From a virus: DNA of 64,000 nucleotides. Below the pieces are notes generated by a model. That model had not been told where the DNA came from, searched no databases, and saw nothing but the letters and a program-made list of their open reading frames with translations. This document shows positions 4,097-51,452 of the stretch, one piece after another (the first letter of the stretch is position 1; each line of letters starts with the position of its first letter). Location of the stretch: the IMG/VR virus record IMGVR_UViG_3300048014_000057, positions 80,860-144,859 of that record. One strand, 5' to 3'. The translations under genes and the position numbers were made by a program.

Positions 4097-4782
4097 TCCA
4101 TAAGAGAATTAAAAGTAAGACTTCTTATAGTACCTAATTTATTAGTATATTGAACCGTATATTTGACGGAAGGAGTCGAAAGAAGAAATTCTTCTATTTT
4201 TCTAAAGGTTTTAATATCTAAATTATCCATGAATTCTCTTTTTTCGTCCATTGTTAATTCTAATAATTCATCTTTATTGTAAATATTTTCAATACATCTA
4301 ACAACTAATTCAAACAAACCATCCTTTTTAAGTCTTGCCTGAAAATCATCAGAATCATAAATAGAGGCTTCTGGATATTTCATTACAATAGTAATATTAT
4401 TATCTACTTTAATGTTATTATCTGGGGGATTGTCTTGAAAATTAACTTTAATATCATCAAAATTAATTTTTAAAGAATATTTTTCTTTATCCTGATCGTC
4501 CTGAATCTCTATTGTTTCTATTGAATTTACTGATTTTGATCTTAGTTGTAAAAATAGATATTCAAGATCAAACATAGGAATAGAGTTAATATTAAAATCT
4601 GGTTCTTGACAACAAACCTTAACAACATCTTTAATGGCTTTAAAAATATCATTAATATTTTTAGATTCTTTGGCAAATAAAAGAATTTTTTCTTCTTTAA
4701 CGAGAAATCGACGAAAATATAAATCTTTTTTATTAGAAGGTTGATTAATTAAAAATGTTGGGTAAATTAATTGTGGTATTAT
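4078..4782 (-). CDS. gp26: Baseplate hub subunit gp26-like (extended to an ATA start)
   Basis: Frame is open upstream of the track ORF and reads IIPQLIYPTF...FRRFLVKEEKILLFAKES...FDLEYLFLQLRSKSV; ends LMDFF; AGGAG 8 nt before ATA. Confidence 0.85.
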   Translation of the reverse strand: MIPQLIYPTFLINQPSNKKDLYFRRFLVKEEKILLFAKESKNINDIFKAIKDVVKVCCQEPDFNINSIPMFDLEYLFLQLRSKSVNSIETIEIQDDQDKEKYSLKINFDDIKVNFQDNPPDNNIKVDNNITIVMKYPEASIYDSDDFQARLKKDGLFELVVRCIENIYNKDELLELTMDEKREFMDNLDIKTFRKIEEFLLSTPSVKYTVQYTNKLGTIRSLTFNSLMDFFLYL

Positions 4783-4793
4783 TTTAAAATCTC

Positions 4794-5414
4794 CTAATTC
4801 TGAAATTCTACTGCAAATTCTCTATAAGTAAATGTAATATCTAATTTTAAAAGATTATCAGTTTTATCCCATGATAAAGGAGTTTCTGAAAATAATATTG
4901 GTTTGGCTCTATAGGCATTGACGATTTTAATCAGATTTCCCGAAAGGTCATATGTATTTATATTTATTACCTGAGAACAAATATCATCTTCATAGGCGGA
5001 AGTATAATTTGGAACAGAATAATTTAAAGCTCCATTTTGTGTGGTTTGAGAATTATTATATATTTCTGCAAAATTATATATGGAATTTATCCATTCATAA
5101 AAAAACTGATATATTAATCCATATTTATCTGTTAGAAATGACATTTCCAAATTACCAAATACAGCATTATAAGGTTGTTTAATTATTGGACCCATACCAT
5201 ATCTTCTTGATTCTGTAGATTGTAATCCTATTGCAGGCGATGTAACACTTTGGGCTCGCATTTGTAGAATTTGCGGTAATCCTGCTAAATTTCCATTGGT
5301 TATAGTTTGATTGCCTAAAATATTAGGAAGTGAAATTAAAATATCAAATTTATTAGAAGAAGAATATCCATAAGTTTTTAAATTTGAAAGAAACTGATTT
5401 ACATCAAAAGCCAT
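4794..5414 (-). CDS. Tail tube/baseplate-tube junction protein (gp54/gp19-like)
   Basis: SNKFDI...RAQSVTSP...YEWINSI...PLSWD...LDITFTYREF pattern; position between gp2 and gp26. Confidence 0.6.
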   Translation of the reverse strand: MAFDVNQFLSNLKTYGYSSSNKFDILISLPNILGNQTITNGNLAGLPQILQMRAQSVTSPAIGLQSTESRRYGMGPIIKQPYNAVFGNLEMSFLTDKYGLIYQFFYEWINSIYNFAEIYNNSQTTQNGALNYSVPNYTSAYEDDICSQVININTYDLSGNLIKIVNAYRAKPILFSETPLSWDKTDNLLKLDITFTYREFAVEFQN

Positions 5415-6539: not shown

Positions 6540-6631
6540 GCGGGATTAGTGTAATGGTAGCACACGGTCCTTATAAGGCCGCATCGCCAGATTAGCGAGT
6601 AGTAAAAGTTCGAATCTTTTATCCCGTACCA
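6540..6631 (+). tRNA. tRNA with anticodon UAU (nominally Ile, AUA), long variable arm and encoded CCA
   Basis: Acceptor GCGGGAT/ATCCCGT, D arm GTGT/GCAC, anticodon stem CGGTC/GGCCG with loop CT-TAT-AA, 22-nt variable region, T arm AAAAG-TTCGAAT-CTTTT, A73, CCA. Confidence 0.9.
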
Positions 6632-18478: not shown

Positions 18479-18894
18479 AATTTTTAACTTTAATATTATT
18501 TTTAGGACTTACTGTTAATGCTTCGGCTAATGGTAGATATCCTATAACAGAAGGACATTTTGAAAATTTAGGAAAAGTAGTGATCGATATAAAAAATTCT
18601 ATCGATCATGATTTTGTTATGTTATCATCTTGGTATGGATATGAATCTGGTAAATTTATGGCTAATGGAAAAAAATGGAATCCAGAAGCCTTGACTGTAG
18701 CTCATAGAACAATTCCTTTTGGTACTAAAATAAAAATTACAAATATTAAAAATGGTAAAAGTGTCATTGCAATTGTTACTGATCGTGGTCCTGCAAAATG
18801 GACTGATAGACAGTTAGACGTTTCTATGAAAATAGCAAAGATTCTAGGATTTAAAAATGCAGGAATAACCAAAGTTCGAGTAAAAATACTATAA
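18475..18894 (+). CDS. RlpA-like (double-psi beta-barrel) lytic transglycosylase with signal peptide
   Basis: SSWYG...ANG...LTVAHRTIPFGT...VTDRGP...DVS..A..LG. Confidence 0.85.
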   Translation: MKFLTLILFLGLTVNASANGRYPITEGHFENLGKVVIDIKNSIDHDFVMLSSWYGYESGKFMANGKKWNPEALTVAHRTIPFGTKIKITNIKNGKSVIAIVTDRGPAKWTDRQLDVSMKIAKILGFKNAGITKVRVKIL

Positions 18895-19071
18895 ATAATA
18901 ATGCATCTAAAAATTTTATAAGAAATGAAAATTATGATTGGATTGGAGTCATAAATTATGATACTATTCAAGGTCTAAAGGCAAAGGGAATAATAACAAA
19001 AAAACCTTCTGCATTTCCAGGAATTAAAAATGAGGGATGTCATATTCCCCTTAGAAGATAAGGATTAATAA

Positions 19072-35349: not shown

Positions 35350-35358
35350 GAAGTTAAT

Positions 35359-35565: not shown

Positions 35566-35579
35566 TATAAGGAAATTTT

Positions 35580-36206
35580 ATGAGTAAATTTTATGTTATA
35601 GAAGGTGGAGAAGGTGTCGGAAAATCCACACAAATTAACCTATTACAAGAATATTTTGAAAAAAATAACATTCCGTCTATAAAAACCAAAGAGCCTGGAG
35701 GTTCTTATATAGCAGAAAAGATTGGTCAGCTTATATTATCCCAAGCTGCCGATATTGATGAATTAACAACATTTTATCTTTTTCAGGCTTCACGAAGAGA
35801 ACATCTTATCAATACTATTATTCCTAATTTAAAACAAGGTAATATTGTAATTTGTGATAGATATTATGATTCTACAGATGTTTATCAAAATAAAATTCCT
35901 GTAGAGTTTCGTAATAGGTGTAAATTAGAAACATTAAAAGTTGACAATTATTATGATTCTTATTCAGTTCCTAATGTAGTTTTTCTACTTGATTTAGATG
36001 CCAAAAAAGCCTTAGAAAGAGTAAAAAATAGAGTAAAACTTAATAATTATTATGATAATGTTTCTCTTGAAATTTTTGAAGAAAGAAGAAGACTATATTT
36101 AGAAATTGCCAAAAAAAATCCTAGAATATATGTTATAAATGCTGATAGAGAAAAAAATGAAATTCATGAAGAAATAATTCAAATTATAAAGGATAAATTA
36201 AAATGA
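35580..36206 (+). CDS. tmk: Thymidylate (dNMP) kinase
   Basis: IEGGEGVGKSTQ, KEPGG, R.EH, CDRYYDS..VYQ. Confidence 0.92.
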   Translation: MSKFYVIEGGEGVGKSTQINLLQEYFEKNNIPSIKTKEPGGSYIAEKIGQLILSQAADIDELTTFYLFQASRREHLINTIIPNLKQGNIVICDRYYDSTDVYQNKIPVEFRNRCKLETLKVDNYYDSYSVPNVVFLLDLDAKKALERVKNRVKLNNYYDNVSLEIFEERRRLYLEIAKKNPRIYVINADREKNEIHEEIIQIIKDKLK

Positions 36207-37216
36207 AAACATATGTTGGAATTGTAAGAGATCATTCGGCTTCTATGCGTCCTTTACAAAAAGGAGCTATTAACGATTATAATCTTCTCATTGACGGAAT
36301 TAAAAATTCTGTACAAGGGTTTAATCAAGAAGCCTATGTTACAGTAGTAGAATGTGGAGTTGGTTATTTAGCCGATGTAAGAGTTAAAGAAAAAAATGTA
36401 AATATTAATAATATAAAACATTTAACAACATATGAAACAAATGGTTCTGGTACTCCATTATTTGATTCGGTAGGCACTATTGTTAAAGAATTAGAAAATA
36501 TTGGTGATAATAGTTCTGATTCTGCATATTTACTTATGGTAGTTACTGATGGACAAAATAATGTATATAAACAATTTGATGGTCCTTCTATTTCTAGAAT
36601 TATTAAAACTTTACAAGCAACAGATAAATGGACATTTGTATTTAGAGTACCCGAAGGATATGCATCTGAATTAATTAGACTTGGCATTCCTTCTGGAAAT
36701 ATTATGGAATGGGAACAGACTGATAAAGGTATTGTTGAGTCCAGTGTAATTAATCAACAAGCTACTCAATCTTATTTTACAGCAAGATCATTAGGTCAAA
36801 CATCTACTTCTAGATATTATACAGATTTAAGTAATGTAAAAATATCGGAAGTTAAACAGGTATTAGAAGATGTTACTGATAAAGTTCATATTTCATGGAT
36901 TCCATTTCATTATCATGGAAAAATGATTCGTGAATTTTGTGAAGAAACTTTTGGAGAATATAGAATTGGTTCTGCATATTATCAATTAACAAAACCAGAA
37001 AAATTGCAAGAAACTAAGAAAATTTGTATTAAACATCTTAAATCAGGAAAAACATATACTGGTTCCTACGCTCGTACAGTCTTAGGACTTCCTTCTTATG
37101 GTGAAGTTAAAATTGCACCTAAAGATCATGGTCAATATGAAATCTTTATTCAATCAACTTCTGTTAATAGAAAATTAATTGGTGATACGAGATTGTTATA
37201 TTACAAAACTTTATAA
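36203..37216 (+). CDS. von Willebrand factor A domain protein
   Basis: MIDAS DHSASM, TPLFD, VTDG; conserved C-terminal IFIQSTSVNRKL. Confidence 0.8.
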   Translation: MKTYVGIVRDHSASMRPLQKGAINDYNLLIDGIKNSVQGFNQEAYVTVVECGVGYLADVRVKEKNVNINNIKHLTTYETNGSGTPLFDSVGTIVKELENIGDNSSDSAYLLMVVTDGQNNVYKQFDGPSISRIIKTLQATDKWTFVFRVPEGYASELIRLGIPSGNIMEWEQTDKGIVESSVINQQATQSYFTARSLGQTSTSRYYTDLSNVKISEVKQVLEDVTDKVHISWIPFHYHGKMIREFCEETFGEYRIGSAYYQLTKPEKLQETKKICIKHLKSGKTYTGSYARTVLGLPSYGEVKIAPKDHGQYEIFIQSTSVNRKLIGDTRLLYYKTL

Positions 37217-37227
37217 GGAAATATAAA

Positions 37228-37485
37228 ATAAAAAATATAGTTGGAATTACTCAAGTTATTGAAGTTGAAATAGATGAAACAAAATTTACTTATGAATTTA
37301 TGAAAGAATTTATAGAATCATTCTATAAATTCAATTGTATTGAAGAACATATTGAATTTCTTGCACAATTATATGCAAGAGGAATAATTCATGATTTTTC
37401 TGATTTTATAGAAGGTTATGGAAATCCTAAAGATTTTGGTATTAAGTTTAGAGTTCTAGATATTTCATCTGAATTAAATGCCTAG
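37228..37485 (+). CDS. Hypothetical protein, probable ATA start
   Basis: Frame of track ORF 37300 extends upstream (IKNIVGITQVIEVEIDETKFT); AAGGA 8 nt before ATA. Confidence 0.6.
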   Translation: MKNIVGITQVIEVEIDETKFTYEFMKEFIESFYKFNCIEEHIEFLAQLYARGIIHDFSDFIEGYGNPKDFGIKFRVLDISSELNA

Positions 37486-38295
37486 ATAAAAATAAGGATC
37501 AGCATTAGGTGCAAGAGTAGTTGTTACGATAAAATCATCGGAAGTATTAGAAACATAAACATAAGAATAAGCATTGGAAGATATTGAATTATTAGAGATA
37601 TCTTCCATACCAAAATTCTTATAGTAATTATTGGAAGAAATATTGTCGGAAACATAAATGCCCACATTGGCAAGATTAATGACAGGGGAAGTTTTAATAG
37701 GACCATAAAAGGCACCTTTTAGAGTAAAACCCAAAACCCAAATTATTACAGACCTATTTTTAAAATTTGAATTTTCATCATCATCAAGTTTAACTCCATT
37801 TAAGATAATAGGAACATCTGTAGGAGGAATATCCGGAAACATAATTGCTCTAATTGTAAAATCTGGTGTAAAAAAAGGAAGTATTTGTTCTAGAATTTTT
37901 GTTCCATCTTCATTATTTTTTACATATATATAAACCTCAAAATGAATATCATAAGGAACCGGATTATAATTAAATGTTACAGAAGAATTAGAAGAAGAAA
38001 GATTAGTAAAATTTCTTCCAATAGTATTAAATTTTCTGGTGGTATCATAAACAATATCCTTGATTTCAAAGGATATTACAGGTAAAATAATTGCATCTTC
38101 TCTATTAATAGCAGGGTCAGAAATAACTCTAGTTAACATTTTTTCTTTTTTAGCATATTGAATTGGTACATTAACAATTTGAGTTACATTATTAGAAGAA
38201 TCATTTCTATTAATTATTAGATTATTAAATACTGATCCCATTAAAAAAACATATTTTTTAATTGTAGAATAATAAAAATAATCGTTATTTAACAA
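37474..38295 (-). CDS. gp15: Tail sheath stabiliser/terminator (T4 gp15-like)
   Basis: YFY..TIKKYV..MG..FN, VPIQYA.KEK, LP.ISFE, PVPYDI, ILEQILPFF.P, YGP. Confidence 0.92.
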   Translation of the reverse strand: MLNNDYFYYSTIKKYVFLMGSVFNNLIINRNDSSNNVTQIVNVPIQYAKKEKMLTRVISDPAINREDAIILPVISFEIKDIVYDTTRKFNTIGRNFTNLSSSNSSVTFNYNPVPYDIHFEVYIYVKNNEDGTKILEQILPFFTPDFTIRAIMFPDIPPTDVPIILNGVKLDDDENSNFKNRSVIIWVLGFTLKGAFYGPIKTSPVINLANVGIYVSDNISSNNYYKNFGMEDISNNSISSNAYSYVYVSNTSDDFIVTTTLAPNADPYFYLGI

Positions 38296-38308
38296 TTATA
38301 TATTCCTT

Positions 38309-38518
38309 TTATGAAAAATATAATTGATATATTTTAAAAGACATTTCTTTAATATCTTCCATCATTACATTTTCATCCATTGTGTCATCAGGCATCATTC
38401 CATCATTATTTCCAGAACTTTCTCCACCATCGGAGTCATTAGTTTCATATCCCATGTTATCGCTTCCTGTAGTATCATTAGGATGTATTGATGCATGAAT
38501 CATATTTTTATTTTTCAT
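38309..38518 (-). CDS. Small acidic low-complexity protein
   Basis: AAGGA RBS, late motif upstream; IHASIH motif. Confidence 0.5.
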   Translation of the reverse strand: MKNKNMIHASIHPNDTTGSDNMGYETNDSDGGESSGNNDGMMPDDTMDENVMMEDIKEMSFKIYQLYFS

Positions 38519-38541
38519 TAAATTTTCCTTTTAATTATTTA

Positions 38542-39276
38542 TTAAGAAACGAAACCAAATGGATTAGATTCCGATGTAGAAACAAGAGGAATAACATCTG
38601 TATTAAGTGTATCTTCATCGGTTATTATATCAATATTTTGTACATCATAAGATTCGAGAGTAATTCTATTACCATTTTCATCTGTGAGAATTGATCCTTC
38701 ATCTGATTGTACAACATTATCAAGAATATTTAATGAAGAAAGAGTTTGTATAGAATCAATTTCTGATATTTCTGTATTAAATGTTTCATTGGAATATTCA
38801 AATAATTCACAAGTTAATCTATAAAGGGGAAGAACACCAAGAGGATAAAAAATTTCTTTATTATTAGTAAATTTAACTTGAAAACATTTTTGATTTAATT
38901 TAAAATATATTAAATCTCCTTCATCTGGTCTTTCAGAATTTGATATTGGTTTTATTGTTCTATCAAATATTCTTTTTGGTATTGTAACTGTTATTTGGTC
39001 TCTAATTTCAAGTCCAAATTTAGAAAAAATATCTTTTTGTCCTCCGAATCCATCAATAGATTCTAAATAACAAATTGTTTCTATTGCATTTGTATATGAT
39101 GATTGATCATCTGTTTCATAAATTTTATCAAAATTTACAATATTTCTTGGTATATAATAAATTTCAATTCCTGCCATTTGAACAGCTTGACAAAGTAAAT
39201 CCTGATATAACTCTTGTTCTGGTTGAAAATTATATCTATTAAAAAAAGGATTAAGATAATTTTGTGGAGTTGTCAT
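38542..39276 (-). CDS. gp14: Neck protein (T4 gp14-like)
   Basis: EQ.L..DL, YYIPR, SKFGLEIRD, RP.EGDLIYF, CELFEYS.E, SE.NPFG. Confidence 0.93.
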   Translation of the reverse strand: MTTPQNYLNPFFNRYNFQPEQELYQDLLCQAVQMAGIEIYYIPRNIVNFDKIYETDDQSSYTNAIETICYLESIDGFGGQKDIFSKFGLEIRDQITVTIPKRIFDRTIKPISNSERPDEGDLIYFKLNQKCFQVKFTNNKEIFYPLGVLPLYRLTCELFEYSNETFNTEISEIDSIQTLSSLNILDNVVQSDEGSILTDENGNRITLESYDVQNIDIITDEDTLNTDVIPLVSTSESNPFGFVS

Positions 39277-39290
39277 TTATTATTTTTATT

Positions 39291-40028
39291 TTAACCGATA
39301 AACATATTAGGTGGTATAGAAAATGCTTTAAGTAATTTCTTTTCTAATCTTTCTATTTCCATAGTAGCATCATTATATATTTTTTGTCCATTTAATTTTA
39401 TTTGTCCAGGCATAGGCAATTCCATCAGACTTAAAATTGATCCCCATCTTTGTTTTATTTGTGCGGTACAATAATCCTGTGCCCATTTATCACTCCATAA
39501 ACCAGAATAAACCGTAGGATCAAGAACCATGTAACATTCTACACAAAGAAACTCCCCAACTGTAATTTGATCCCAATCCATATCCAAGTAACAAATATTA
39601 TTATGACGATTATAACGAATAGGTTGTTGTCCAACTAACATTTGTTCTAAAAATTGTACATGCTCCATAACCATATAATAAGGAATTAAGGAAACATTGG
39701 AAATATTATAAAGATCATTAATGACGAATTGATATCTCATATTAAAAAGAGAATTGGTATTTAAAGCATCACCAATAGGAAAAAGTCTAACAGCACCAAT
39801 AATATTTTGAGGAAGAGTAATATAACGATTCTGAATATCCTGTTCTGTTACAGAATAAGTATAATATGTTTTATCACTTCCTTCCATATGATATGTTGCA
39901 TATAAATATAACATAGCATCTACAGCATCATCAACTTGTTCTTCTGAAACATTTATTTGAATTACTGGTGCGCCGAGTTTACGTAGACAATAATTTTTAA
40001 AATCTTGACGATTAGTAGGTACAGTCAT
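39291..40028 (-). CDS. gp13: Neck protein (T4 gp13-like)
   Basis: YCLRKLGAPVIQINV...Q.DD, IKQRWG, LNG..IY.DA, PP.MFIG. Confidence 0.95.
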   Translation of the reverse strand: MTVPTNRQDFKNYCLRKLGAPVIQINVSEEQVDDAVDAMLYLYATYHMEGSDKTYYTYSVTEQDIQNRYITLPQNIIGAVRLFPIGDALNTNSLFNMRYQFVINDLYNISNVSLIPYYMVMEHVQFLEQMLVGQQPIRYNRHNNICYLDMDWDQITVGEFLCVECYMVLDPTVYSGLWSDKWAQDYCTAQIKQRWGSILSLMELPMPGQIKLNGQKIYNDATMEIERLEKKLLKAFSIPPNMFIG

Positions 40029-40061
40029 TTAAAATCCTTTTTATATATTTATTCAAAACAC

Positions 40062-40095
40062 AAAAAAAAGGACTATCAATTAAGATAGTCCTTTT
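40062..40095 (-). terminator. Rho-independent terminator (possibly bidirectional)
   Basis: AAAAGGACTATC-aattaa-GATAGTCCTTTT with an 8-T tail on the minus strand. Confidence 0.8.
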
Positions 40096-40120
40096 AAAAT
40101 AAAGTTTTTACTTTTATTTA

Positions 40121-40609
40121 TTATTCTGTTTTTTCTTCTTTTTCTATTTCATCTTTCTCACATTCTACATCAATAAGTTTTACTTCCCAAAATTCATCTC
40201 TTTTCAGAAGAAAATTATATAAACATTTTGCATCTTTTTCTGTTTCTACCTCATAATATTCATTCCCAGAAGAAGTTTTGAAAAGAATATAATATTCATT
40301 ATATTTTGCTAGTTCTTCATTATTACTTACATTTATATTTTCTGTATTAAGATTTTCTAGATAATCAACAGAAACATATTTTTTATTTATTGCTTTTCTG
40401 ATTAATTCCTCAAAATATGAATAATTAATAATTGTATTTTTATCTTGATATGCGTTTATAATTTCCTTACAATCTTCTAGATTAAAACCAGTTTGACTTT
40501 TCATTTCTCTGACTTGACCAATTAAATTAGGAAAATCTGTAGTTACATTTACAACTATATCCTTAACACGTTCGATAAGAGCGTTTAACATTTGATATGC
40601 CATAATCAT
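40121..40609 (-). CDS. Hypothetical early protein with an L7/L12-CTD/EF-Ts-like helical motif
   Basis: AGGAG RBS; IGQVREMKSQTGFNLEDCKEII; own promoter and terminator. Confidence 0.6.
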   Translation of the reverse strand: MIMAYQMLNALIERVKDIVVNVTTDFPNLIGQVREMKSQTGFNLEDCKEIINAYQDKNTIINYSYFEELIRKAINKKYVSVDYLENLNTENINVSNNEELAKYNEYYILFKTSSGNEYYEVETEKDAKCLYNFLLKRDEFWEVKLIDVECEKDEIEKEEKTE

Positions 40610-40638
40610 TTTTTACTCTCCTTTTATTCGAGGATTTC

Positions 40639-40667
40639 AATATAGGAAATATTTTTTAGAATGTCAA
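40639..40667 (-). promoter_or_regulatory. Sigma70-type promoter (TTGACA-17-TATATT)
   Basis: Near-consensus with 17-nt spacing, upstream of 40609. Confidence 0.65.
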
Positions 40668-41203
40668 GCAGAAAATAACAAAGAAAAAACTGAATCACTC
40701 CGATCAGTAAATATTTCTCTATCATTTAAACCATTTAAACCACCATTAATTTTTCGCGTAATACCTTCGATATCATCATTATCTGCAAGTGCATTAAGAT
40801 TATGTGATTTCCAATATTCACATGCTGTTCTAACCGCAATTTCAGGAGAAGCAGCCAAAGAAGGATTGCTAACTAAATCAATACCAAGAATTTTTGACAT
40901 GGAAGTATAATTAGTACGTCCTGTTAATTGAAAAATTCCTCTTCCTTTAAATCTAGGACCATCACCTTCTTCTGTATTACCTAAATCTCGTCTACCTTCA
41001 TATTCATTTCCTGAAGCATATTCTACTAATGTTTTAAATCCAGCAGATTCCTCTGCGGCCTGTCCATAAAAATGATCTAGGCGAAGAAGTGTATTAATTT
41101 CATATAAAGGTAAATATTTATTTAAAAATGGGATTAAATCTGAAACTATTTGATGATTAGCTTGTGGAGCAATTTTTAATAACATTTCTTCTGTGATATT
41201 CAT
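40664..41203 (-). CDS. Glycoside hydrolase family 19 endolysin
   Basis: HFYGQAAEESAGF, DG.RFKGRGIFQLTGR.NY, TRKINGG.NGL.DR. Confidence 0.92.
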   Translation of the reverse strand: MNITEEMLLKIAPQANHQIVSDLIPFLNKYLPLYEINTLLRLDHFYGQAAEESAGFKTLVEYASGNEYEGRRDLGNTEEGDGPRFKGRGIFQLTGRTNYTSMSKILGIDLVSNPSLAASPEIAVRTACEYWKSHNLNALADNDDIEGITRKINGGLNGLNDREIFTDRSDSVFSLLFSA

Positions 41204-41220
41204 TTTTCTTCCTTTTTAAC

Positions 41221-41249
41221 TTGACATGAAATTAATTTTATGTTAGTAT
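41221..41249 (+). promoter_or_regulatory. Sigma70-type promoter (TTGACA-17-TAGTAT)
   Basis: Near-consensus, upstream of the + strand orphan gene. Confidence 0.65.
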
Positions 41250-41273
41250 TTATTTATGCAAAGGAGATTTGTC

Positions 41274-41579
41274 ATGAAAATTCTTGTAATATTCTTTTAT
41301 ATGTTTGTTATTATTTCTTGTAATGCATCGGAAATAGATGATGCTACTCAAAATTTATATAATTGGGGAATAACTCATCAAGAAGAATTAAATAAATTTT
41401 TTCGAGATCATCCTTCTGAAACATCATATTTTCGATGGATTTATATTGGACATAACAAATATACAATGGTATTTCCTGCCCCTTCACGAGGATTAAAAGA
41501 AGGTTGTTTTGAGACTGCCCAAGGATGGGAAAAAGGTTATATGCCGGGAGATATGCATGTCAATGATAATTGTTCATAA
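41274..41579 (+). CDS. Small exported or lipoprotein-like protein
   Basis: AAGGAG RBS before ATG 41274; MKILVIFFYMFVIISCNA signal-like; two further Cys. Confidence 0.6.
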   Translation: MKILVIFFYMFVIISCNASEIDDATQNLYNWGITHQEELNKFFRDHPSETSYFRWIYIGHNKYTMVFPAPSRGLKEGCFETAQGWEKGYMPGDMHVNDNCS

Positions 41580-41585
41580 AAAAAT

Positions 41586-42308
41586 TTAAAATGAAAAATT
41601 CATAAATGGAGCGGAATATCCAGAACTCGGAGTGTAAATTAATTCAATAGCTCCTTGTGCTCCATTCCCTCCTAAACCTCCATATCCATCCGAACTGCCT
41701 CCACCACCACCATAGTTAGACCCAGGATATCCACTTCCGGAAGTGCCTCCTCCACCACCAGCACCACCTATACCTCCTCCACCACCAGCACCACCATTAT
41801 TAAAAAATGCTGATCCCCCATTTCCATTAATATCACCTCCACCTCCACCTCCACCTCCATTTCCATCTCCATCTCCACCTCCATAACTAGGAAAATTATT
41901 AGATTGACCACCAGCACCACCATTATGTGTTAATCCAGTTCCTCCCGCCGAATTTCCACCAAAAAAAGAAGAAGTATTTCCAGGATTAATTCCACCATTT
42001 GCAGTAAGAGTTATTGATCCTGTAAACGATGTAGTTCCACCAGGATTAGGAAATTGTCCAATATATATACCAGTACCATTAGATTGAGTACCACCAGCAC
42101 CAATTGAAATTGTTACAGTATTAGGATTAAATGTATTAGATATACCGAGGGAAAATCCACCACCACCACCACCATAACCATTTCCTTTTCCGCTAGAATT
42201 ATATCCCCAAGCACCTGCGCCCGCACCATAAACTAATACATTGGCATAACCAGGAAAACCAGATAAAGCAGGAAGAGAAGTACCAGAAGTAATTGTTACA
42301 CTAGTCAT
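41586..42308 (-). CDS. Glycine-rich tail-fibre-associated protein (adhesin-like)
   Basis: Long GGGGG/GAGG runs; downstream of a fibre gene. Confidence 0.6.
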   Translation of the reverse strand: MTSVTITSGTSLPALSGFPGYANVLVYGAGAGAWGYNSSGKGNGYGGGGGGFSLGISNTFNPNTVTISIGAGGTQSNGTGIYIGQFPNPGGTTSFTGSITLTANGGINPGNTSSFFGGNSAGGTGLTHNGGAGGQSNNFPSYGGGDGDGNGGGGGGGGDINGNGGSAFFNNGGAGGGGGIGGAGGGGGTSGSGYPGSNYGGGGGSSDGYGGLGGNGAQGAIELIYTPSSGYSAPFMNFSF

Positions 42309-42706
42309 TCTACTAAATCTCCATTTTTATATTTCCATCCTATTTTTGCAGTTGGATGTTGTATTATTTTATGATTCTTTCCAAGATGATCACCAGAATC
42401 TCCACATGATAAATCTGCTTCAATTATGTTTATAACATTTCCGTTATGATCAACATGAGCATGTCTTGTTTCGTGTAATTCAGGAATTTTTAAATTTATT
42501 TTTTTTGATATAAATTCTTGTAATTTTATGAAATTTTTTTCATATTCTTGGTGAGTTAAATATAAAAATCCTTCTCCATCATGTTTATTATTTTCATGTT
42601 CTTTATATTCAGAATTATTATCTGCATCAATAATTCTTCTTATTTTTCCTGTTTTTTTAGAATATATAATTAAAATTTTATTAACATTTCTTCTAGAATT
42701 ATTCAT
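42305..42706 (-). CDS. Hypothetical protein, possible fibre assembly factor
   Basis: Between the fibre and Gly-rich genes; V.NIIEAD...A.IGW.Y motif. Confidence 0.5.
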   Translation of the reverse strand: MNNSRRNVNKILIIYSKKTGKIRRIIDADNNSEYKEHENNKHDGEGFLYLTHQEYEKNFIKLQEFISKKINLKIPELHETRHAHVDHNGNVINIIEADLSCGDSGDHLGKNHKIIQHPTAKIGWKYKNGDLVE

Positions 42707-42748
42707 TTTTTTTCTCTTTTTTTATTATTTTACAGAAAAGTGTATGTT

Positions 42749-45235
42749 TTAAATATTTCCGTCACAAATTGTTAGAGAAGTATTAACAATGAATATAGAT
42801 ACAGAACCATATTGATTTATTACATTATAATTTCCTGTTCTTGATCCTAATGTCATTCCAGCCGAATTAGTGAAATTAACATTTCCAGAACCTAATCTTG
42901 TTACTAATAATCTAGAATTATTTGGCATTGTATTAGGAATATTAATATAAACATTACTAGAAGAATTTACAAGAATAATAGAGCCTGAATCTGTATTAGA
43001 AAGACTATAATTTGCAGAAATTGTATTCGATTGCATATAAAGAGATTGTACATAAGAATTTACACTTACATAACCATTAGCAATAATATTATTATTTACA
43101 GTAATAGTACCACCAAATTGAACCCCCGCACCAGTCTGATCTATATTAACAAAACCAGTTGCTAAATTTAATATATAGGGTCTTAGAGAACTCCATGTTC
43201 CGGTAGAATTTCCCGATGCAGTTATCATTTCATAATAATTACTTCCGTCATTTCTAAAAATAATACCATAATTTCCATAAATTGCTCTAAATTGTCCACC
43301 ACCACTATCAAAACTAGTAGAAACTATTCCTCCATTACCATTAATTTGTCCAACAGAATTTATATATGAAGAAGAATTAATTGTTGTTCCGTTAAAAACA
43401 CCCGTAAAAACTGTTGCATTAGCATAATAAGAAGAGTTATGTCCTCCGAAATTTGTTGAATTATTTGAAGTAAGAGTAGCAACATTTCCTGATAATCCGG
43501 CCGTAGTTTGATAGGATGATAAATTAGACTGTAATTGTGCATTGGAAACAACATTAGCAACACTAACCGTACCTACATAATTTGTATTATTAGAGGTTAA
43601 AGTAGCAACATTAGCAGATAAAGTTGAATTTAATTGATAGGAAGAAGCAATTGTACCACCTAAATAACTTGAATTATTTGAAGTAAGAGTAGCAACATTA
43701 GCAGATAAAGTTGAATTTAATTGATAGGATAATAAATTAGATTGTAATTGTGTATTGGAAACAACATTAGCAACACTAACCGTACCTACATAATTTGTAT
43801 TATTAGAAGTAAGAGTAGCAACATTAGCAGATAATCCGGCTGTAGTTTGATAATTGGAAAGATTAGAGGTTAATTGAGAAGTATTAACTAAATTAACTAT
43901 ATTTGCCTGTAATTGTGCATTGGAAACAACATTAGCAATACTAACCGTACCTACATAATTTGTATTATTAGAGGTTAAAGTAGCAACATTTCCTGATAAT
44001 CCGGCTGTAGTTTGATAGGATGATAAATTAGATTGTAATTGTGCATTGGAAACAACATTGGCAACAGATACAGAACCTACATAATTTGTATTATTAGAAG
44101 TTCCTGTAAATATTGTAGAATTAACACTAGAATTAACGGTAGAATTACCAATATTTAAAGAATTTGCAGTAATAGAAGAAAAATTACCTATCCATCTATA
44201 AGTAGAATTACCTACTAAATATGAATTATCTATAGAAGGAATAAAATTTCCATTAGAAACTTGTGTATTAGAATAAGTAATATTTCCTGAAACTGTTAGA
44301 CTTCCTAAGACTGTTATATTCGAAACCACATTTATAAATCCTGTAGTAATTGAAGAAGAATTTATAAATGTGTTAACTGTAGAATTGCCCAAAGAAATAA
44401 CAGAAGTATTGACTAAAACATTAGAACCAATAGAGATATTTGATGAAAAAACCGGATTTGTTACATTAGCAAATGAGGAAGAAGGTAAACCATTAAAATA
44501 AGTTGAATTATTGGAAGTTCCTGTAAATACTGTGGAATTAACTATGGAATTAACTGTGGAATTGCCTATAAAAAATAAAGAATTATTGACAATAGTATTT
44601 CCTACAATTATAGTAGAAGTATTGACTAAAACATTAGAACCAATAGAGATATTTGATGAAAAAACCGGATTTGTTACATTGGCATAATAAGAAGATAATT
44701 GTCCATTAAAATAAGTCGAATTATTGGAAGTTCCTGTAAATACTGTGGAATTAACTGTAGAATTAACTGTGGAATTTCCAAAATATATTAGAGAAGAATT
44801 TACAACAGTATTTCCTGTATTTAAAGAAATTGTATTAATATTTCCATTGACAATCATATTATTAGAAAAATTTGTATTACCAATAATAGAAGATGTATTA
44901 ATTATTAAATTATTCGTAGAAATATTAAATGTACTTTTTGAAGAATTCGCATAAATTCCACCAAGTGAATATAATCCAATATTAAAAAATGTATTGGAAC
45001 CTACATAAAGATTAGCAGCAGCATTAATAGTTCCGCCTTGAATTGTATTTCCAACGGCTAAAACAACAGAACCAAAATAACCATTAACAAAAGAATTTCC
45101 TGTAGTTAAGGAACCATTAGAAGTTGCATCGGAGGTAACAGTATTTGATGAAATAATATTAGCAATTTGATTGCTTCTTGTTAACCAAGTTCCAAAATAT
45201 TGACTGTTTGAAATTTGGCTAACTGTAATAGACAT
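42749..45235 (-). CDS. Tail fibre protein
   Basis: F..W..R.N N terminus, repeated GNSTVN and SNNTNYVG units, YGNYG..FRNDG...W..LRP fibre module. Confidence 0.8.
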   Translation of the reverse strand: MSITVSQISNSQYFGTWLTRSNQIANIISSNTVTSDATSNGSLTTGNSFVNGYFGSVVLAVGNTIQGGTINAAANLYVGSNTFFNIGLYSLGGIYANSSKSTFNISTNNLIINTSSIIGNTNFSNNMIVNGNINTISLNTGNTVVNSSLIYFGNSTVNSTVNSTVFTGTSNNSTYFNGQLSSYYANVTNPVFSSNISIGSNVLVNTSTIIVGNTIVNNSLFFIGNSTVNSIVNSTVFTGTSNNSTYFNGLPSSSFANVTNPVFSSNISIGSNVLVNTSVISLGNSTVNTFINSSSITTGFINVVSNITVLGSLTVSGNITYSNTQVSNGNFIPSIDNSYLVGNSTYRWIGNFSSITANSLNIGNSTVNSSVNSTIFTGTSNNTNYVGSVSVANVVSNAQLQSNLSSYQTTAGLSGNVATLTSNNTNYVGTVSIANVVSNAQLQANIVNLVNTSQLTSNLSNYQTTAGLSANVATLTSNNTNYVGTVSVANVVSNTQLQSNLLSYQLNSTLSANVATLTSNNSSYLGGTIASSYQLNSTLSANVATLTSNNTNYVGTVSVANVVSNAQLQSNLSSYQTTAGLSGNVATLTSNNSTNFGGHNSSYYANATVFTGVFNGTTINSSSYINSVGQINGNGGIVSTSFDSGGGQFRAIYGNYGIIFRNDGSNYYEMITASGNSTGTWSSLRPYILNLATGFVNIDQTGAGVQFGGTITVNNNIIANGYVSVNSYVQSLYMQSNTISANYSLSNTDSGSIILVNSSSNVYINIPNTMPNNSRLLVTRLGSGNVNFTNSAGMTLGSRTGNYNVINQYGSVSIFIVNTSLTICDGNI
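43091..43397. repeat. 307-bp direct repeat, copy 1 (copy 2 at 63508-63814)
   Basis: Manual alignment: 5 mismatches, no gaps. Confidence 0.92.
43460..44105 (-). repeat. Mosaic internal coding repeats in the fibre shaft (SNNTNYVGTVSVANVVSNAQLQSNLSSYQTTAGLSGNVATLT and variants)
   Basis: About four near-identical DNA copies plus shorter variants; boundaries approximate. Confidence 0.85.
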
Positions 45236-45252
45236 TCATTATCCTTTTTTAA

Positions 45253-45474
45253 TTATTTATTTAATATTTTTTTTAATAAATTTTTAATTTCTAATATATC
45301 TGATTTCACGTCATCAAATTCTTCTACCATTTTATTTACTCGAAATCTGTAATCTCTTTCTTTTTTATATGCATTTAATTTTTCTATATCTTTATTTAAA
45401 ATAGCCTGAGTGTTCATATCTCTTATTAAAGATGGATTTTTTTCAACCTGATAAAATCTCGGGGTATTTCTCAT
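45253..45474 (-). CDS. Small conserved T4-like hypothetical protein
   Basis: LIRD..T.AILN...Y...R...D..EIK.LL pattern usually found after the large DUF4815-type gene. Confidence 0.7.
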   Translation of the reverse strand: MRNTPRFYQVEKNPSLIRDMNTQAILNKDIEKLNAYKKERDYRFRVNKMVEEFDDVKSDILEIKNLLKKILNK

Positions 45475-45486
45475 TTATTTCCTTAA

Positions 45487-48400
45487 TTATGTCAAAGTTG
45501 AAATAGCAACATAATCCGTTAATAGCGGAACTAAATAACTTCCTGCATTTGATAATAATACTAATTTTATAGCAAAAGTATCATATCCAACAAATAAAGC
45601 ACCGGAATTAGAAGTATATTGTACCATACCATTAGAATTTAAATAAGCTGTATTAAGATATGAATTACCAGAAGGAAGAGAGTTAGCAAAATTAAATATA
45701 TATTGATTAAAATCTTGATTATTAATTTTACTTGATCTTGTAATATTTGTAGTGTACATCGGAGTCCAAGATTTATTGATAAATGGATCAGAATCGTATT
45801 GATTTTGAATTTTAGCATAACAATAAATTGAAGTATTTGGAGGATAATAAGCACCAACATAAACTGTCATATCTTCTGCATCCATACCAGAAACCAAAGT
45901 AACAGTTTGGGAAATATATTTGTTTATAGCATTTCCTGAATTTGTTATTTCAGAAAGAAAAACATCATTATTGGAATCTTCTCCATTTATTAAATTCTGA
46001 ATACAAACAACAGCACTTTTAACTATATTAATAGCAGGAGAAAGATAATAAGAATTTGTAGTCATGTTTCCATATACAAATAATGATTTATTTCCAGAAT
46101 TATATTTCATTTCATTAGATTTAGACATAACTACTCTTTCTTTATCTATAAAATCTGTTGATTTTCCAAATGTAAGATAAGTTTGATTTATATCAGATAT
46201 ATAAGAATTATAAGAATTTGAGACCCCCAACATTGAAAAATTAAGAGTAGTTACAGAAGGAATGGAAGTTGCAAATTTAGGCATTATAGTATCATAAGGA
46301 ATATCATTAAGAGTAGTAATAGTAGCAGAAGCGCCAGAAAGAGAACCAATAATTAATCCATTATTAGTAGAAAGATAAACAGAAGAATTAGAAGTAGAAT
46401 TTTGTACTGTTAATATTGTATTATTAACAGATTTAATTAATCCAGTAAGTCCTCCGTTAGATGTAAGAATACCCATAGAACAATTATTATCAGTAAATAT
46501 TGGTACTGTATTAATAACAAATGAACCAACAGAATTTGAATTTACGTTAGCAATCATACAATAATTATTTGTATTAGAAAATAGATAAATTTTTGTATTG
46601 GCTGCTAATCCAGTTGTATTTCCATTAATTGTAGTTGAAGTATTAGAAACTGAAATATTTCCTGTTTGAAGAACTGTATTAGAATAATAAACAGCCTCTC
46701 CTAATTGAAAAATTCTTGAAGTATTGGCAATTGAAAGATATTCAGTATCATCATTAGTAAAAGTAGCAATACCCTGAGTAACAGTAAAATCTGCTATATA
46801 AAGATTAAATTTAATAGCTTCATTTTGATATGCAGTCCAAGTAGAATTTTGTGAGGAAAGAAACATATCCCCAATAAATGAAAGAGAATAGATTGGAGCA
46901 TTAGTAAGAACATCTGTTCCTGAAATTACACCTGTCCATAAATCATAATTAGGATTTGCTCCATCAGGAATAACAACAAAACAATAATCTGTTCCACTTT
47001 CTAAAAATACGGGTTCTGGAAATACAATATTTGTTACTGCCGAAGCATTCCCAGAAGTTAAAATTTGAGAAGGAATAAGATGAATTTGTGATCCTACTTG
47101 AATATTTATACCTGGATAACCATTAACCATATCTCTTATCTGAATTGTTACACCAAGATTAGGATCAACTGCATAAAAATATAAATCAAGTGAAGTTATA
47201 TAAACCCCTTGAACATTTGAAGGTAAATTAGTAGAAAGAATAGAAAATGCTTGTGCAATTGGCTCATGATGAGTTACAGCCAATGCTGCTTCTTGTACAA
47301 TTAATGTATTAATATCAAATCCAGTAACTACTGTATTAGTAGAAGTAGAATTAGAATAAGTAACCATAGATTGTGAAACTGTAGTAAGTGCTACTTGTGC
47401 TGCTTGTGTTTGTAATTCTAAATTATTTTGTGTATAAGCTAGATTAGTTCCTTGATAAGTACAAGAAGCTATAGTAGTAATAATATTTGACATTGTAACA
47501 AGATTAGAAATATCCATTATTTGAAAATTAATATTTCCTGTATAAAAAGTATTAGCAGGAAGATAAAAATATCCATAAATTGTTCCCGTAGAATCTGTCA
47601 CCATATTTGTTTGATTTAAAATATTATAATTAGAGTCAGTCTGTTTACAATATTGCGAAATTGACTTATCATTAAAATAAGTATAAACTTGTGTAGATGG
47701 TTTTAATCCAGTTGCAAAAAATTTAATTAATTGTGCCTGACAAAAAGGTTGAAGAGAAGCATCAGTTATAACATCTCCAAAAGAATAAGTAGAATTTACA
47801 GGAGTAACAGAAAGTTGTGTACCTGTTTGAGTATAAGTATTTGCTGTAGAAGAACTTGTGGTTGTAGTAGTGGCATAACCAGAAGTTGTAGTTTTAGAAG
47901 AACTTGTTGTCGTAGAAGCAGTTTCATTCCATGTTCCCCACTGAGTTCCCCAAGCATTTGCAAGATTTACCCAATTAGAATAAGAATTTAAATCTACAAC
48001 TACAGCAGGATTTACAGTAACATCGGGAGACCAATTACCAGATGGATTAAGGGTTACTGTTCCTGTCCATTCATAAAGAATATCTTCTGCACAATTTCTA
48101 AGTTGTGAGGCAAATGGCTGTGTAATCCACGGTCCAATTTGTTGATTATCAAGAAGAATTAATTGATTATCAGAAGAAACTACAGTATTATTGGATAAAT
48201 TATTAGAATATTCTAAATTTACATTAAATTGAGTAAATGTAGGACGAGCTTCGGAAGTAGAACCATCAATAGCAATATTAAAAGCAGGATCAAGTGTATT
48301 AGAAATAGAAAAATCATTAAATGGATCAGCAAGAATTCCATTTTGAAATCTTGTTTGTCCAGATTGATTAGTTAATAATAAATTTTGTGCAGTTTGTTCT

Positions 48401-51400
48401 AATACAGATAAACCAGAATAATATGTAGCTTGTTGAATTTGTTGTGCCAAAACACCAATATCCTGCATGGTATATCTTCTATTGGTATTATAGACTAATG
48501 AAGAAGTTGGATTTCCATTAGATTTATTAGAGTCTACAATATCTACAGTCAAAGTAGGATAAGGTGGAATATAAACAGTTGCAAGAGTCATTCCTGATTG
48601 AATTTGACCGGCTGGTGCTGGATTTTCAGAAGGAACACCAGAATTAACAACAATTGTTCCTTGTGGAGAAAGTCCCACAACATCATATCTTCCTACATAA
48701 TATTGAAGAGAAGATTCAAATTCTGCTCCGTTAATAGGAACAAATAAATTAGAAGATGAAAATGAAATTGTATTAGAAGGATTAACAATAGAAGTATTTG
48801 AAATTGCCAAAGTGACATTGGAAATATAAGGAATTGTGTTAGAAGCCGAAAATCTAAAATCTACGGAATTTCTTAAATTATAAATTATACCAGAAGACAC
48901 AGAACCATAAGTTTGAATATCCTGTGTAAAAATTGAATTAGAAGTGACTCCGGTATCATCAACAGGATAAGAATCTACAGAATAAAAACCTGCCCCCGAG
49001 GAAATATTTTTTTGATAGGCTTCTATTTGAACCAATAAAACTTCTGTATTTGAAAGAGAAGCACCATTGGAAGAAAGATATGATAAACCATAAAATTGAT
49101 CATTTTGGTTATTATTAAGAGTAAATTGTGAAGTTATTGATTGATTTGTATTTGAATAAGTTGTTCCTACCCAAACATTTGCAACAGAAAATACATCTGG
49201 AATTCCTAAAGACCATGGTCCTTTTGTTCCATTAATATTATTAGATAAATTAATTGTTACATAAACAGAAGTTTGAAGTTGTTTAGTGGCAGGAGAAGCA
49301 ACTACTCTTTGAATTGGATAAAGGACTGTTCCATTAAAAGATGAAGAAAAATTTTCATTAAGAGAAATTGTAAATGAAGTAGAATTTGCTATATTAATTT
49401 TTGTATTAGCAAGAGAAGTAGGAATTTGCATACCAGCAAGATATTGAATAGAAATATTTGCACCAGCACCAGACCATGAATTATTAGCGTTTCTCGTAAG
49501 AGCAAGAGTTGTATTATTAGAAATTGAAGCAACTTGCTTTATTTCAGATACAGTAGAATTTGCAATTAAAATATAACATCCATTATAAAGTGATGTTGTA
49601 AATGTAGTTGAGGTTCCTGTTAAAGTATTTCCAGAAGAAACCACAGAACCAGAAATATTTGCAGTAGTTTGTGAAGATTCAATTGTAATAATAAAATCTT
49701 CCATTTGTTGCTGAGTAAGCGTACCAGAACCAAAAGGTAATTCATTTGTTCCACCAGCATAAGTTGGAATTGTTATAGAAACATTTCCCGTATTTGAAAA
49801 AGATACATTAGTGGATTGAATATATTGAAATTGAGAATCGACTGTATTAGAAGAAGTTTTGAGAGTTTTAATTGCTCCTTGATTAAATGAATAAACCAGA
49901 GTAGCTGTATTTGAATCTTGAAGAGAAAATGTATTGGCAGAATTAAAAGTAACATCTGCAAATCCTAAACTTCCACCTGAATTTGCAAATAATGATTTTA
50001 CATTGGCAAAAGAATATCCAGAAGACATTTGAATATTAAAAAGATATAAATCATAAACACAATTAGCAAATCCTTCTGTACCATTATCATATTCTACTCC
50101 AAGAATATTTGCAGTACCTATTTGTGTTCCTGGTGCAGTAATAGAATTAGTAGGAATACCAATAGAAAGATTATTAGAAATTGAATAAGCCGGTTGACTT
50201 CTTAAAGAAACTTGTTGTAAAATAGAAGGATTAAAAATACCAGAAAATTCTTGAACTTGAAGATAATTACCAAGTTGTGTTGTTACAATCTGAGATGGAG
50301 CATTTAAAATTGTATTACCTTTGGGAAGTACGCCTAAAAGTTTTCCAAGAATTTGTACTCTGTAACCTTGTACATAAGCAAGACCCGAATCTATTTCTAG
50401 TCTAATATTATTTGTATCAATTGAACCATTGGAAGTGACATTTTGTAATGTTCTAACATTAAATGGGTTAATGACGAAATTTCCATTAGTCTCATAGGAA
50501 TATTCTGCCATTTTATCACCAATAATAGAATATGTAGTATCCTGATTAACTATAGAAGGAGAACCAGCAACAAAATCAACAATAGAAAAGAAATCATTAG
50601 AAGAAGTAGAACTTGTTTGTCTTAAAACAAGAGTAGGAATAATTTTTAATCTATCTGCACCAGGAGCGGCATAATTTAGTGAACCTTGAGAATTATCCAA
50701 AAGAGATTGATCTTGAAATGAAGTTACAATAGATTCCATTGACTGAAATCCGACTGAAATATTATTTGGTTGATTTGTATATGGAGTTACAATAATAGAT
50801 TGATTAGCTACTTCTAATAATAACCCTTTTTGAAAAATAGAACCAGAAGAAACAGAAACTCCATAAGATGATCCTGTAGTATTAGAAGAACCAGAAGTAA
50901 TAGTATTTGCTACTTGAACTTGTGCAATAGCGAGATTTGAAGAAGTAACGATATTTAAAATTTCATCATTTTGAAATACCTTAATAGCAGAATTTGTTGT
51001 GGCAGAATTAAGATAAGTAATGAATAAAGTATTAAGATTTGGAGATTGTGAAATATAACCTTGAGAAGTATCACGAATATAAGCTTTAAGACCAGAATTA
51101 GAAAGTGCAATTAGACCCTTAAGAGAAGAAATTGTAAGAGGGGAGCCATTTGCATAAGTATCTGTAAGTTTTACATAGGAAAGATTATTTTTATAAGTTA
51201 TATTACAACCGCTTACAATAGTGCCATTCACGAAAATATTTTCACCAAATGTTTGAATTTGGTTTTGCATAATTGATTGTGTTGTATTAAGTTCGCGTGT
51301 TTGTACAGCCTGAGATGGCTTAAAAAGTACACGATAATATTGATCATTTGCATTAAATGTATCAAAATAAGGAGATTGATTTAAATTTGTATCAAGCTGA

Positions 51401-51411
51401 CCAGTTCCGAT
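45487..51411 (-). CDS. Very large virion structural protein (DUF4815/VrlC-like), extended to a probable ATC start
   Basis: Upstream in-frame LNQSPYFD.F.....YYRVLFKP..AVQTREL...Q.I.QNQI..FG; NYAAPGADRLK; NRRYTMQDI; RFQNGILADPF; PIAQAF. Confidence 0.85.
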   Translation of the reverse strand: MGTGQLDTNLNQSPYFDTFNANDQYYRVLFKPSQAVQTRELNTTQSIMQNQIQTFGENIFVNGTIVSGCNITYKNNLSYVKLTDTYANGSPLTISSLKGLIALSNSGLKAYIRDTSQGYISQSPNLNTLFITYLNSATTNSAIKVFQNDEILNIVTSSNLAIAQVQVANTITSGSSNTTGSSYGVSVSSGSIFQKGLLLEVANQSIIVTPYTNQPNNISVGFQSMESIVTSFQDQSLLDNSQGSLNYAAPGADRLKIIPTLVLRQTSSTSSNDFFSIVDFVAGSPSIVNQDTTYSIIGDKMAEYSYETNGNFVINPFNVRTLQNVTSNGSIDTNNIRLEIDSGLAYVQGYRVQILGKLLGVLPKGNTILNAPSQIVTTQLGNYLQVQEFSGIFNPSILQQVSLRSQPAYSISNNLSIGIPTNSITAPGTQIGTANILGVEYDNGTEGFANCVYDLYLFNIQMSSGYSFANVKSLFANSGGSLGFADVTFNSANTFSLQDSNTATLVYSFNQGAIKTLKTSSNTVDSQFQYIQSTNVSFSNTGNVSITIPTYAGGTNELPFGSGTLTQQQMEDFIITIESSQTTANISGSVVSSGNTLTGTSTTFTTSLYNGCYILIANSTVSEIKQVASISNNTTLALTRNANNSWSGAGANISIQYLAGMQIPTSLANTKINIANSTSFTISLNENFSSSFNGTVLYPIQRVVASPATKQLQTSVYVTINLSNNINGTKGPWSLGIPDVFSVANVWVGTTYSNTNQSITSQFTLNNNQNDQFYGLSYLSSNGASLSNTEVLLVQIEAYQKNISSGAGFYSVDSYPVDDTGVTSNSIFTQDIQTYGSVSSGIIYNLRNSVDFRFSASNTIPYISNVTLAISNTSIVNPSNTISFSSSNLFVPINGAEFESSLQYYVGRYDVVGLSPQGTIVVNSGVPSENPAPAGQIQSGMTLATVYIPPYPTLTVDIVDSNKSNGNPTSSLVYNTNRRYTMQDIGVLAQQIQQATYYSGLSVLEQTAQNLLLTNQSGQTRFQNGILADPFNDFSISNTLDPAFNIAIDGSTSEARPTFTQFNVNLEYSNNLSNNTVVSSDNQLILLDNQQIGPWITQPFASQLRNCAEDILYEWTGTVTLNPSGNWSPDVTVNPAVVVDLNSYSNWVNLANAWGTQWGTWNETASTTTSSSKTTTSGYATTTTTSSSTANTYTQTGTQLSVTPVNSTYSFGDVITDASLQPFCQAQLIKFFATGLKPSTQVYTYFNDKSISQYCKQTDSNYNILNQTNMVTDSTGTIYGYFYLPANTFYTGNINFQIMDISNLVTMSNIITTIASCTYQGTNLAYTQNNLELQTQAAQVALTTVSQSMVTYSNSTSTNTVVTGFDINTLIVQEAALAVTHHEPIAQAFSILSTNLPSNVQGVYITSLDLYFYAVDPNLGVTIQIRDMVNGYPGINIQVGSQIHLIPSQILTSGNASAVTNIVFPEPVFLESGTDYCFVVIPDGANPNYDLWTGVISGTDVLTNAPIYSLSFIGDMFLSSQNSTWTAYQNEAIKFNLYIADFTVTQGIATFTNDDTEYLSIANTSRIFQLGEAVYYSNTVLQTGNISVSNTSTTINGNTTGLAANTKIYLFSNTNNYCMIANVNSNSVGSFVINTVPIFTDNNCSMGILTSNGGLTGLIKSVNNTILTVQNSTSNSSVYLSTNNGLIIGSLSGASATITTLNDIPYDTIMPKFATSIPSVTTLNFSMLGVSNSYNSYISDINQTYLTFGKSTDFIDKERVVMSKSNEMKYNSGNKSLFVYGNMTTNSYYLSPAINIVKSAVVCIQNLINGEDSNNDVFLSEITNSGNAINKYISQTVTLVSGMDAEDMTVYVGAYYPPNTSIYCYAKIQNQYDSDPFINKSWTPMYTTNITRSSKINNQDFNQYIFNFANSLPSGNSYLNTAYLNSNGMVQYTSNSGALFVGYDTFAIKLVLLSNAGSYLVPLLTDYVAISTLT

Positions 51412-51452
51412 TTTCTTATTCCTTATATTTTTTTATTATTTATTGTATTTAT

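Follow-up and report, generated by a model that had tools for sequence, protein, structure and literature searches.

Probable near-cognate ATA, ATT and ATC start codons behind strong Shine–Dalgarno sites in a T4-like phage from moss metagenomes

Five genes with ATH codons at their starts

We analysed a window of 64,000 nucleotides, the last 64 kb of one 144,859-bp contig with 27% GC (IMG/VR virus record IMGVR_UViG_3300048014_000057), for genes that appear to begin with ATA, ATT or ATC (together ATH) in place of a canonical ATG, GTG or TTG. The contig is found in several moss-metagenome runs and belongs to a T4-like phage, whose gp26 is 34–39% identical to gp26 of cyanophages, of Pelagibacter phage Mosig and of alphaproteobacterial T4-like phages. 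Estimated genome completeness is 84%, and the absence of any gene holds for that fraction only. In bacteria, AUU, AUA and AUC count as start codons (NCBI table 11; infC, pcnB). A start survey of the 195 gene-like open reading frames (ORFs) of the whole genome recovered four ATH sites in the window and a fifth at a baseplate wedge gene outside it. The sites and their genes are listed here in window positions, unless marked as genome positions.

4078–4782 (−): gp26 baseplate hub gene, 234 codons plus stop, start ATA at 4782–4780
4791–4795 (−): Shine–Dalgarno AGGAG of gp26, 8 nt before the ATA, spacer ending in AAA
34669–34715 (+): 15-bp perfect hairpin whose 3' arm holds the AAGGAG of the i-spanin gene
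34719–35075 (+): i-spanin gene, 118 codons plus stop; start most likely ATT 34719, alternative TTG 34743
37215–37219 (+): Shine–Dalgarno AAGGA of the small hypothetical gene, 8 nt ending in AAA before the ATA
37228–37485 (+): small hypothetical gene (phrog_19384), 85 codons plus stop, start ATA 37228
45487–51411 (−): DUF4815/VrlC-like giant gene, 1974 codons plus stop, start ATC 51411–51409
51420–51424 (−): Shine–Dalgarno AAGGA of the DUF4815 gene, 8 nt ending in AAA before the ATC
Genome 1012 (−), outside the window: start ATC of the baseplate wedge gene (phrog_232), preceded by AGGAG and 8 nt

All five sites share AGGAG or AAGGA, an 8-nt spacer and then an in-frame ATH codon, which is a functional Shine–Dalgarno (SD) spacing. 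At the four window sites the spacer ends in AAA, exactly as the original prediction had described them. Four of the five genes (gp26, the hypothetical gene, DUF4815 and wedge) have no canonical codon anywhere from the upstream stop to the conserved N-terminus; the i-spanin gene is the exception.

We next asked how unusual this arrangement is, defining a strong SD as AGGAG, AAGGA or GGAGG. Across the genome, 0.28% of ATH codons have a strong SD at a spacer of 8 nt, whether counted in frame within genes or in any frame. Of the 197 ATH codons found after an upstream stop but ahead of any canonical start, five have a strong SD at this spacer, against 0.57 expected. A strong SD precedes five of five ATH sites and 82 of 193 canonical starts. 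The distance from AGGA to the start is 8–9 nt at all five sites and at three of three in the relative G001 introduced below, compared with 32% of canonical starts with AGGA. AAA stands directly before the start at four of five ATH sites and in 30 of the 82 strong-SD canonical genes. Canonical usage is itself broad, with ~20 TTG (~10%) and 6 GTG starts among ~193 genes; the earlier statement that core genes often use TTG or GTG was broadly right, and nrdJ, gp41, gp2 and gp15 are among them.

Three of the five sites also differ from most genes in what lies just upstream. At gp26, wedge and the hypothetical gene, the stop of the upstream gene falls inside the SD, 11 nt before the start, and the same holds for gp15 in G001; across all genes, ~16% have a gap in this range. 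The gp26 SD overlaps the TAG (4796–4794) of a tail-tube-family gene (4794–5414), and that of the hypothetical gene overlaps the TAA (37214–37216) of a 337-aa gene. The corresponding gap is 41 nt at DUF4815 and ~57 nt plus the hairpin at i-spanin.

Homology points to gene starts at the ATH codons

The reach of homology to the N-termini is a stronger argument than the chance count. At gp26, an in-frame TAG lies 13 codons upstream of the ATA and the first ATG, GTG or TTG 69 codons downstream. The PF12322 and phrog_150 profiles begin within 3–13 residues of the ATA, with PF12322 positions 7–218 corresponding to residues 13–231, and the alignments of all 554 phage homologues begin at residue 2. The ATA column is ATG in eight IMG/VR contigs (59% identity), and I-P comes next both there and here. 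Eight full-length relatives in a large protein collection are 234–235 aa long and begin at the same alignment column as the ATA. The automatic gene call for gp26 of this phage in that collection (three contigs) is only 165 aa.

The DUF4815 gene has an in-frame TAA 7 codons upstream of its ATC and its first ATG 47 codons downstream, and phrog_358 positions 4–475 match residues 7–473. The ATC column is TTG in three lineages (75%, 67% and 51% identity), and three further lineages have an ATG one or two codons upstream of it. For gp26 and DUF4815, the claim that the conserved N-terminus precedes the first canonical codon, with an in-frame stop further up, was therefore borne out. In the wedge gene, the first ATG comes 51 codons past the ATC, phrog_232 reaches residue 3, and the ATG of the G001 orthologue aligns with the ATC.

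The hypothetical gene has its first ATG 24 codons downstream of the ATA. Profile positions 7–92 of phrog_19384 correspond to residues 5–83, and the alignments to homologues from phages of Caulobacter, Erythrobacter and Sinorhizobium begin at residue 5–9. In Erythrobacter phage XM05 the annotated start falls on residue 1; this one distant homologue is the evidence for the start position of the gene. We found no relative of it in a pattern scan of viral contigs or in the G001 record.

One further gene resembles these cases in part. A membrane-protein ORF at genome 53549–54364 (−) has its first canonical start, a GTG, 39 codons in, past the first predicted transmembrane helix. Further up it has only ATA and ATT codons without a strong SD, and it has no PHROG match; we did not count it as an ATH case.

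Start codons differ between related phages

The nearest relatives of the phage are uncultured IMG/VR contigs. The closest, G001 (107.5 kb, 44% GC, 13 predicted tRNAs), is also a T4-like phage from a moss metagenome, and it has canonical starts in its orthologues of four of our five ATH genes. ATH starts occur in other G001 genes. Its gp15 (tail sheath stabilizer) starts with ATT, aligned with a TTG in our genome, its thymidylate kinase starts with ATT and has its first canonical codon only past the P-loop, and its gp41-type helicase starts with ATC where ours has TTG one codon further on. Each of the three has an SD at the same 8–9 nt spacing. We rejected a fourth G001 candidate (AGGAG, 8 nt, ATA), as the ATG of its orthologue aligns with a downstream ATG in G001.

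Among orthologue pairs of the two phages with aligned starts, 29 are ATG in both and ~17 differ, a count in which two ATG/ATT pairs look like alignment offsets and not ATH starts. The differing pairs include ATG against TTG or GTG, and ATH against canonical codons. Start identity drifts in this clade, with ATG, TTG, GTG and ATH swapping at the same aligned position. The original prediction had named ATG in close relatives as evidence to the contrary. ATG or TTG is indeed present in relatives that are 47–75% identical; this fixes the position of the start and does not refute the ATH codon, and same-strain assemblies show ATH.

ATH starts account for 5 of ~195 genes here and 3 of ~107–140 in G001. 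Applied to Pelagibacter phage Mosig (33% GC; first 100 kb, 113 ORFs), the same filter gave no ATH case, and in partial genomes of five more distant relatives (148 kb, ~144 ORFs) it gave none that was convincing. ATH starts are enriched in two related moss phages and, because Mosig and the five other relatives have none, they are not general to AT-rich T4-like phages. The genome-wide and comparative survey that had been proposed therefore yielded a fifth case here, three in G001 and none in six other T4-like genomes or fragments.

A likely route to initiation

We consider it likely that the ATH codons are genuine near-cognate start codons, used by initiator tRNA with the help of a strong, well-spaced SD. 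Judging from the sequence, the 5–6 nt SD (AGGAG or AAGGA), with its AGGA core 8–9 nt ahead, would set the 30S P site over AUA, AUU or AUC. Host fMet-tRNA would then pair with the first two bases, leaving the third mismatched, and the protein would begin with Met. Output would be expected to be a fraction of the AUG yield, with the strong, well-spaced SD and the A-rich spacer partly offsetting the weak codon. As the mark of translational coupling we took an upstream same-strand ORF whose end falls on the SD or the start, or only a few nt away, an arrangement found at the 11-nt sites. There, at gp26, wedge and the hypothetical gene, terminating ribosomes could be handed on, because the upstream stop lies in the SD, 11 nt before the start.

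No dedicated phage factor would be needed for this. IF3 and bS21 genes were not found in the 84%-complete phage genome. A peptide deformylase gene is present. The phage tRNA-Met(CAU) has a paired position 1–72 and does not have the three G-C pairs of initiators.

Published yields for such codons span a wide range. In E. coli reporters, AUA, AUC and AUU gave 1–2% of AUG, and mass spectrometry identified a Met N-terminus for AUC (bioRxiv 10.1101/063800). AUU was placed 6–8-fold below AUG elsewhere, doubling in the coupled infC arrangement and rising 3-fold with an A/U-rich enhancer (PMC3592434). A T4 rIIB AUG-to-AUA mutant kept ~15% residual translation, the figure for the phage HB-3 hydrolase is 5–7.5%, and in vitro, given an optimized context, AUA performed like AUG (reviewed in PMC5499595). 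Our literature search on ATH starts in phages returned general translation papers only.

Several points weigh against initiation at the ATH codons by standard means. A yield of 1–2% of AUG might seem too low for structural genes such as that of the wedge subunit. At the i-spanin gene, a stable hairpin encloses the SD, and a TTG is present downstream. Confirmation from independent assemblies covers three of five sites, leaving out 4782 and genome 1012. Finally, the cases cluster, with 8 in ~300 genes of the two moss phages against 0 in ~257 of the other relatives, which hints at lineage- or host-specific help.

Alternative readings

The last of these points leads to the alternative that survives best, which we nevertheless regard as doubtful: start proofreading relaxed specifically in this phage–host system, through a host IF3 or 16S P-site variant or a phage factor, so that AUH would work about as well as UUG or GUG. 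Such relaxation would account for AUH on 2–3% of genes; the enrichment over Mosig and the five distant relatives, the frequent TTG (~10% of starts) and the involvement of genes that are essential in T4 point the same way. Conceivably, though with no better prospects, the hosts or the infected-cell state of both moss phages relax third-position discrimination, and AUH is routine there and exchanges freely with AUG and UUG. Against a phage factor stand the missing IF3 and bS21 genes and a tRNA-Met that is not initiator-like. Moreover, the two phages may not share a host, because their GC contents differ greatly (27% and 44%). The strong, well-spaced SD at every ATH site suggests that the codon remains weak and is being compensated for, and the affected genes are not limited to late or lysis classes.

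The same observations bear on the interpretation offered originally. Its placing of the ATH codons at true start positions holds, with no canonical start possible in four of the five genes. Its suggestion of a phage translational switch that licenses late and lysis proteins is not supported: the ATH genes of G001 include a thymidylate kinase and a gp41-type helicase, which are neither late nor lysis genes, and the 84%-complete genome offers neither an IF3 or bS21 homologue nor initiator features in its tRNA-Met(CAU).

A second alternative concerns the i-spanin gene only, and we think it unlikely: translation from TTG 34743, 8 codons downstream, instead of ATT 34719. TTG is a canonical start, its use would leave the transmembrane helix intact, and the weak match to phrog_739 (Rz-like spanin) begins only at residue 14. 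The SD ahead of the ATT is also sequestered. AAGGAG at 34705–34710 is followed by 8 nt ending in AAA and the ATT (+), with an in-frame stop 10 codons upstream, and the hairpin that holds it folds at −14.9 kcal/mol (z −3.9), a stability matched by none of 200 shuffles. The TTG, for its part, is unconserved and has no ribosome-binding site ahead of it. The eight codons before it encode protein conserved with G001, where an ATG aligns with the ATT and the TTG column is a Phe codon. The hairpin is not conserved in G001. It begins 8 nt past the stop of an 84-aa membrane-protein gene (34407–34661, possible holin), and a ribosome terminating there could open it.

Very improbable is the third alternative, in which the ATH codons arose by misassembly or by recent inactivating mutation and the genes are either dead or translated from ATGs further on. 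The genome is metagenome-assembled and our re-check reached three of the five sites, which leaves some room for it. We compared Logan contigs of four moss-metagenome runs with window positions 34000–52000, and the ATH codons were kept at those three sites: contigs of other moss samples show no alternative letter at 34719–34721, 37228–37230 or 51409–51411. In a second sample, an 8.4-kb contig at depth 14 spans 34682–41824; in a third, contigs spanning 36908–37582 and 51087–51483 have zero differences. Exact-pattern scans of metagenome and viral contigs gave no copies of the sites at 4782 and genome 1012. In RNA runs, only ~11% of sampled words were present. The ATT codons of G001 gp15 and thymidylate kinase are identical in four contigs each, from different IMG samples. 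The frames are unbroken, with conservation extending over as many as 1974 codons, and use of the downstream ATGs would cost 24–69 conserved residues. It would also be very unlikely for a phage found in several samples to have lost five starts independently, in genes for baseplate, hub and lysis. This reading is largely refuted already.

Least credible of all is a phage tRNA acting as a dedicated AUA initiator. The candidate is present in the window and has a weak G1–U72 pair, as listed:

6540–6631 (+): UAU-anticodon tRNA predicted by ARAGORN, 92 nt, G1–U72 pair, long variable arm

Only two of the five sites are ATA, however, its anticodon stem does not have the three consecutive G-C pairs of bacterial initiators, and G001, with its ATT and ATC starts, has no such tRNA among its 13 predicted. 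Outside the window, at genome 71924–72016, lies a 93-nt tRNA-Tyr-like gene with an AUA anticodon.

The gp26–gp51 overlap and other genes in the window

At its other end, gp26 overlaps a second unusual arrangement. A gp51-like ORF (phrog_634) at 3905–4108 (−) occupies the −1 frame relative to gp26, stays open upstream across a T9 run within the last codons of gp26, and has an ATA overlapping the gp26 stop (4080–4078). Its first canonical start comes no earlier than codon 38 here and codon 49 in the relative. We considered it as a sixth ATH case and rejected it: in ten of ten T4-like phages sampled, the ORF follows in the −1 frame behind a conserved T-run, and an ATG close to the gp26 stop is present in only four of the ten. 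In addition, the ORF has a match to the C-terminal end of the gp26 family profile, at positions 240–282. The arrangement would fit a programmed −1 frameshift producing a gp26–gp51 fusion, and for this reason we did not count the ORF as an ATH start. The last 11 residues of gp26 (about 4081–4110, −) are its most conserved part, nearly invariant across relatives, a pattern that would fit dual coding or a frameshift signal in the overlap. Separately, a 156-aa relative, P0005, may hide another odd start.

Other observations concern further features of the window. The i-spanin gene is followed directly by an o-spanin gene at 35077. On the opposite strand, a T-run follows the i-spanin hairpin. Just upstream of the DUF4815 giant gene, at 51453–52046 (−), is an ADP-ribosyltransferase-like gene (phrog_3895, Alt-like families). 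A nucleotidyltransferase gene (phrog_388; 33385–34146 and 34147–34410, +) is split by one in-frame TAA at 34144–34146; its parts match profile positions 35–255 and 257–339, and G001 has one uninterrupted ORF. A 68-codon ORF just upstream of the gp41 helicase gene, at 18855–19058 (+), contains no ATG, GTG or TTG; in a 307-codon G001 gene, the C-terminal part that begins at residue 257 aligns with it, which suggests a frameshifted or split gene.

Consequences for annotation and for tests of initiation

Standard gene callers allow only ATG, GTG and TTG, and therefore truncate or lose ATH genes. Counting ATH starts corrects phage proteomes and domain boundaries, the 165-aa stump called for gp26 being one example. 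The presence of AUH on hub, wedge, giant-fibre-like and spanin genes suggests that a near-cognate codon with a strong SD is probably sufficient for genes that are essential in T4. Since different genes are affected in the two related genomes, the pair supplies natural matched ATG, TTG and ATH initiation regions for reporters of start stringency.

Comparison with known systems

The closest parallels are E. coli infC and pcnB, where, as proposed here, a near-cognate AUH behind an SD is used by initiator tRNA and the weak start sets a low or regulated output. As at the phage sites with an 11-nt gap, the infC start follows shortly after an upstream gene's stop (PMC3592434). The E. coli genes differ in using AUU, whereas ATA, ATT and ATC all occur in the phage, mostly on virion and lysis genes. 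Density differs as well, with two cases confirmed in the whole E. coli genome (bioRxiv 10.1101/063800) against at least five in this 145-kb phage (~2.6%). The likeness to infC does not extend to its control: we saw no sign of IF3 autoregulation in the phage and found no phage IF3.

In T4, AUU and AUA can initiate at a reduced level, and gene 26 itself is involved, with an internal AUU start reportedly described by Nivinskas and colleagues in 1992. That AUU is reported to be a secondary start within the gene, whereas the ATA of our phage is the only possible start for full-length gp26. Termination–reinitiation at M13 genes V–VII (PMC2268962) offers a parallel for the proposed coupling at three of five phage genes, those with an upstream stop inside the SD and a gap of 11 nt to the start. 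The parallel does not extend to DUF4815 and i-spanin, where the gaps are at least 41 nt. Set beside these systems, the phage is a dense example of known weak-start usage and not a new mechanism.

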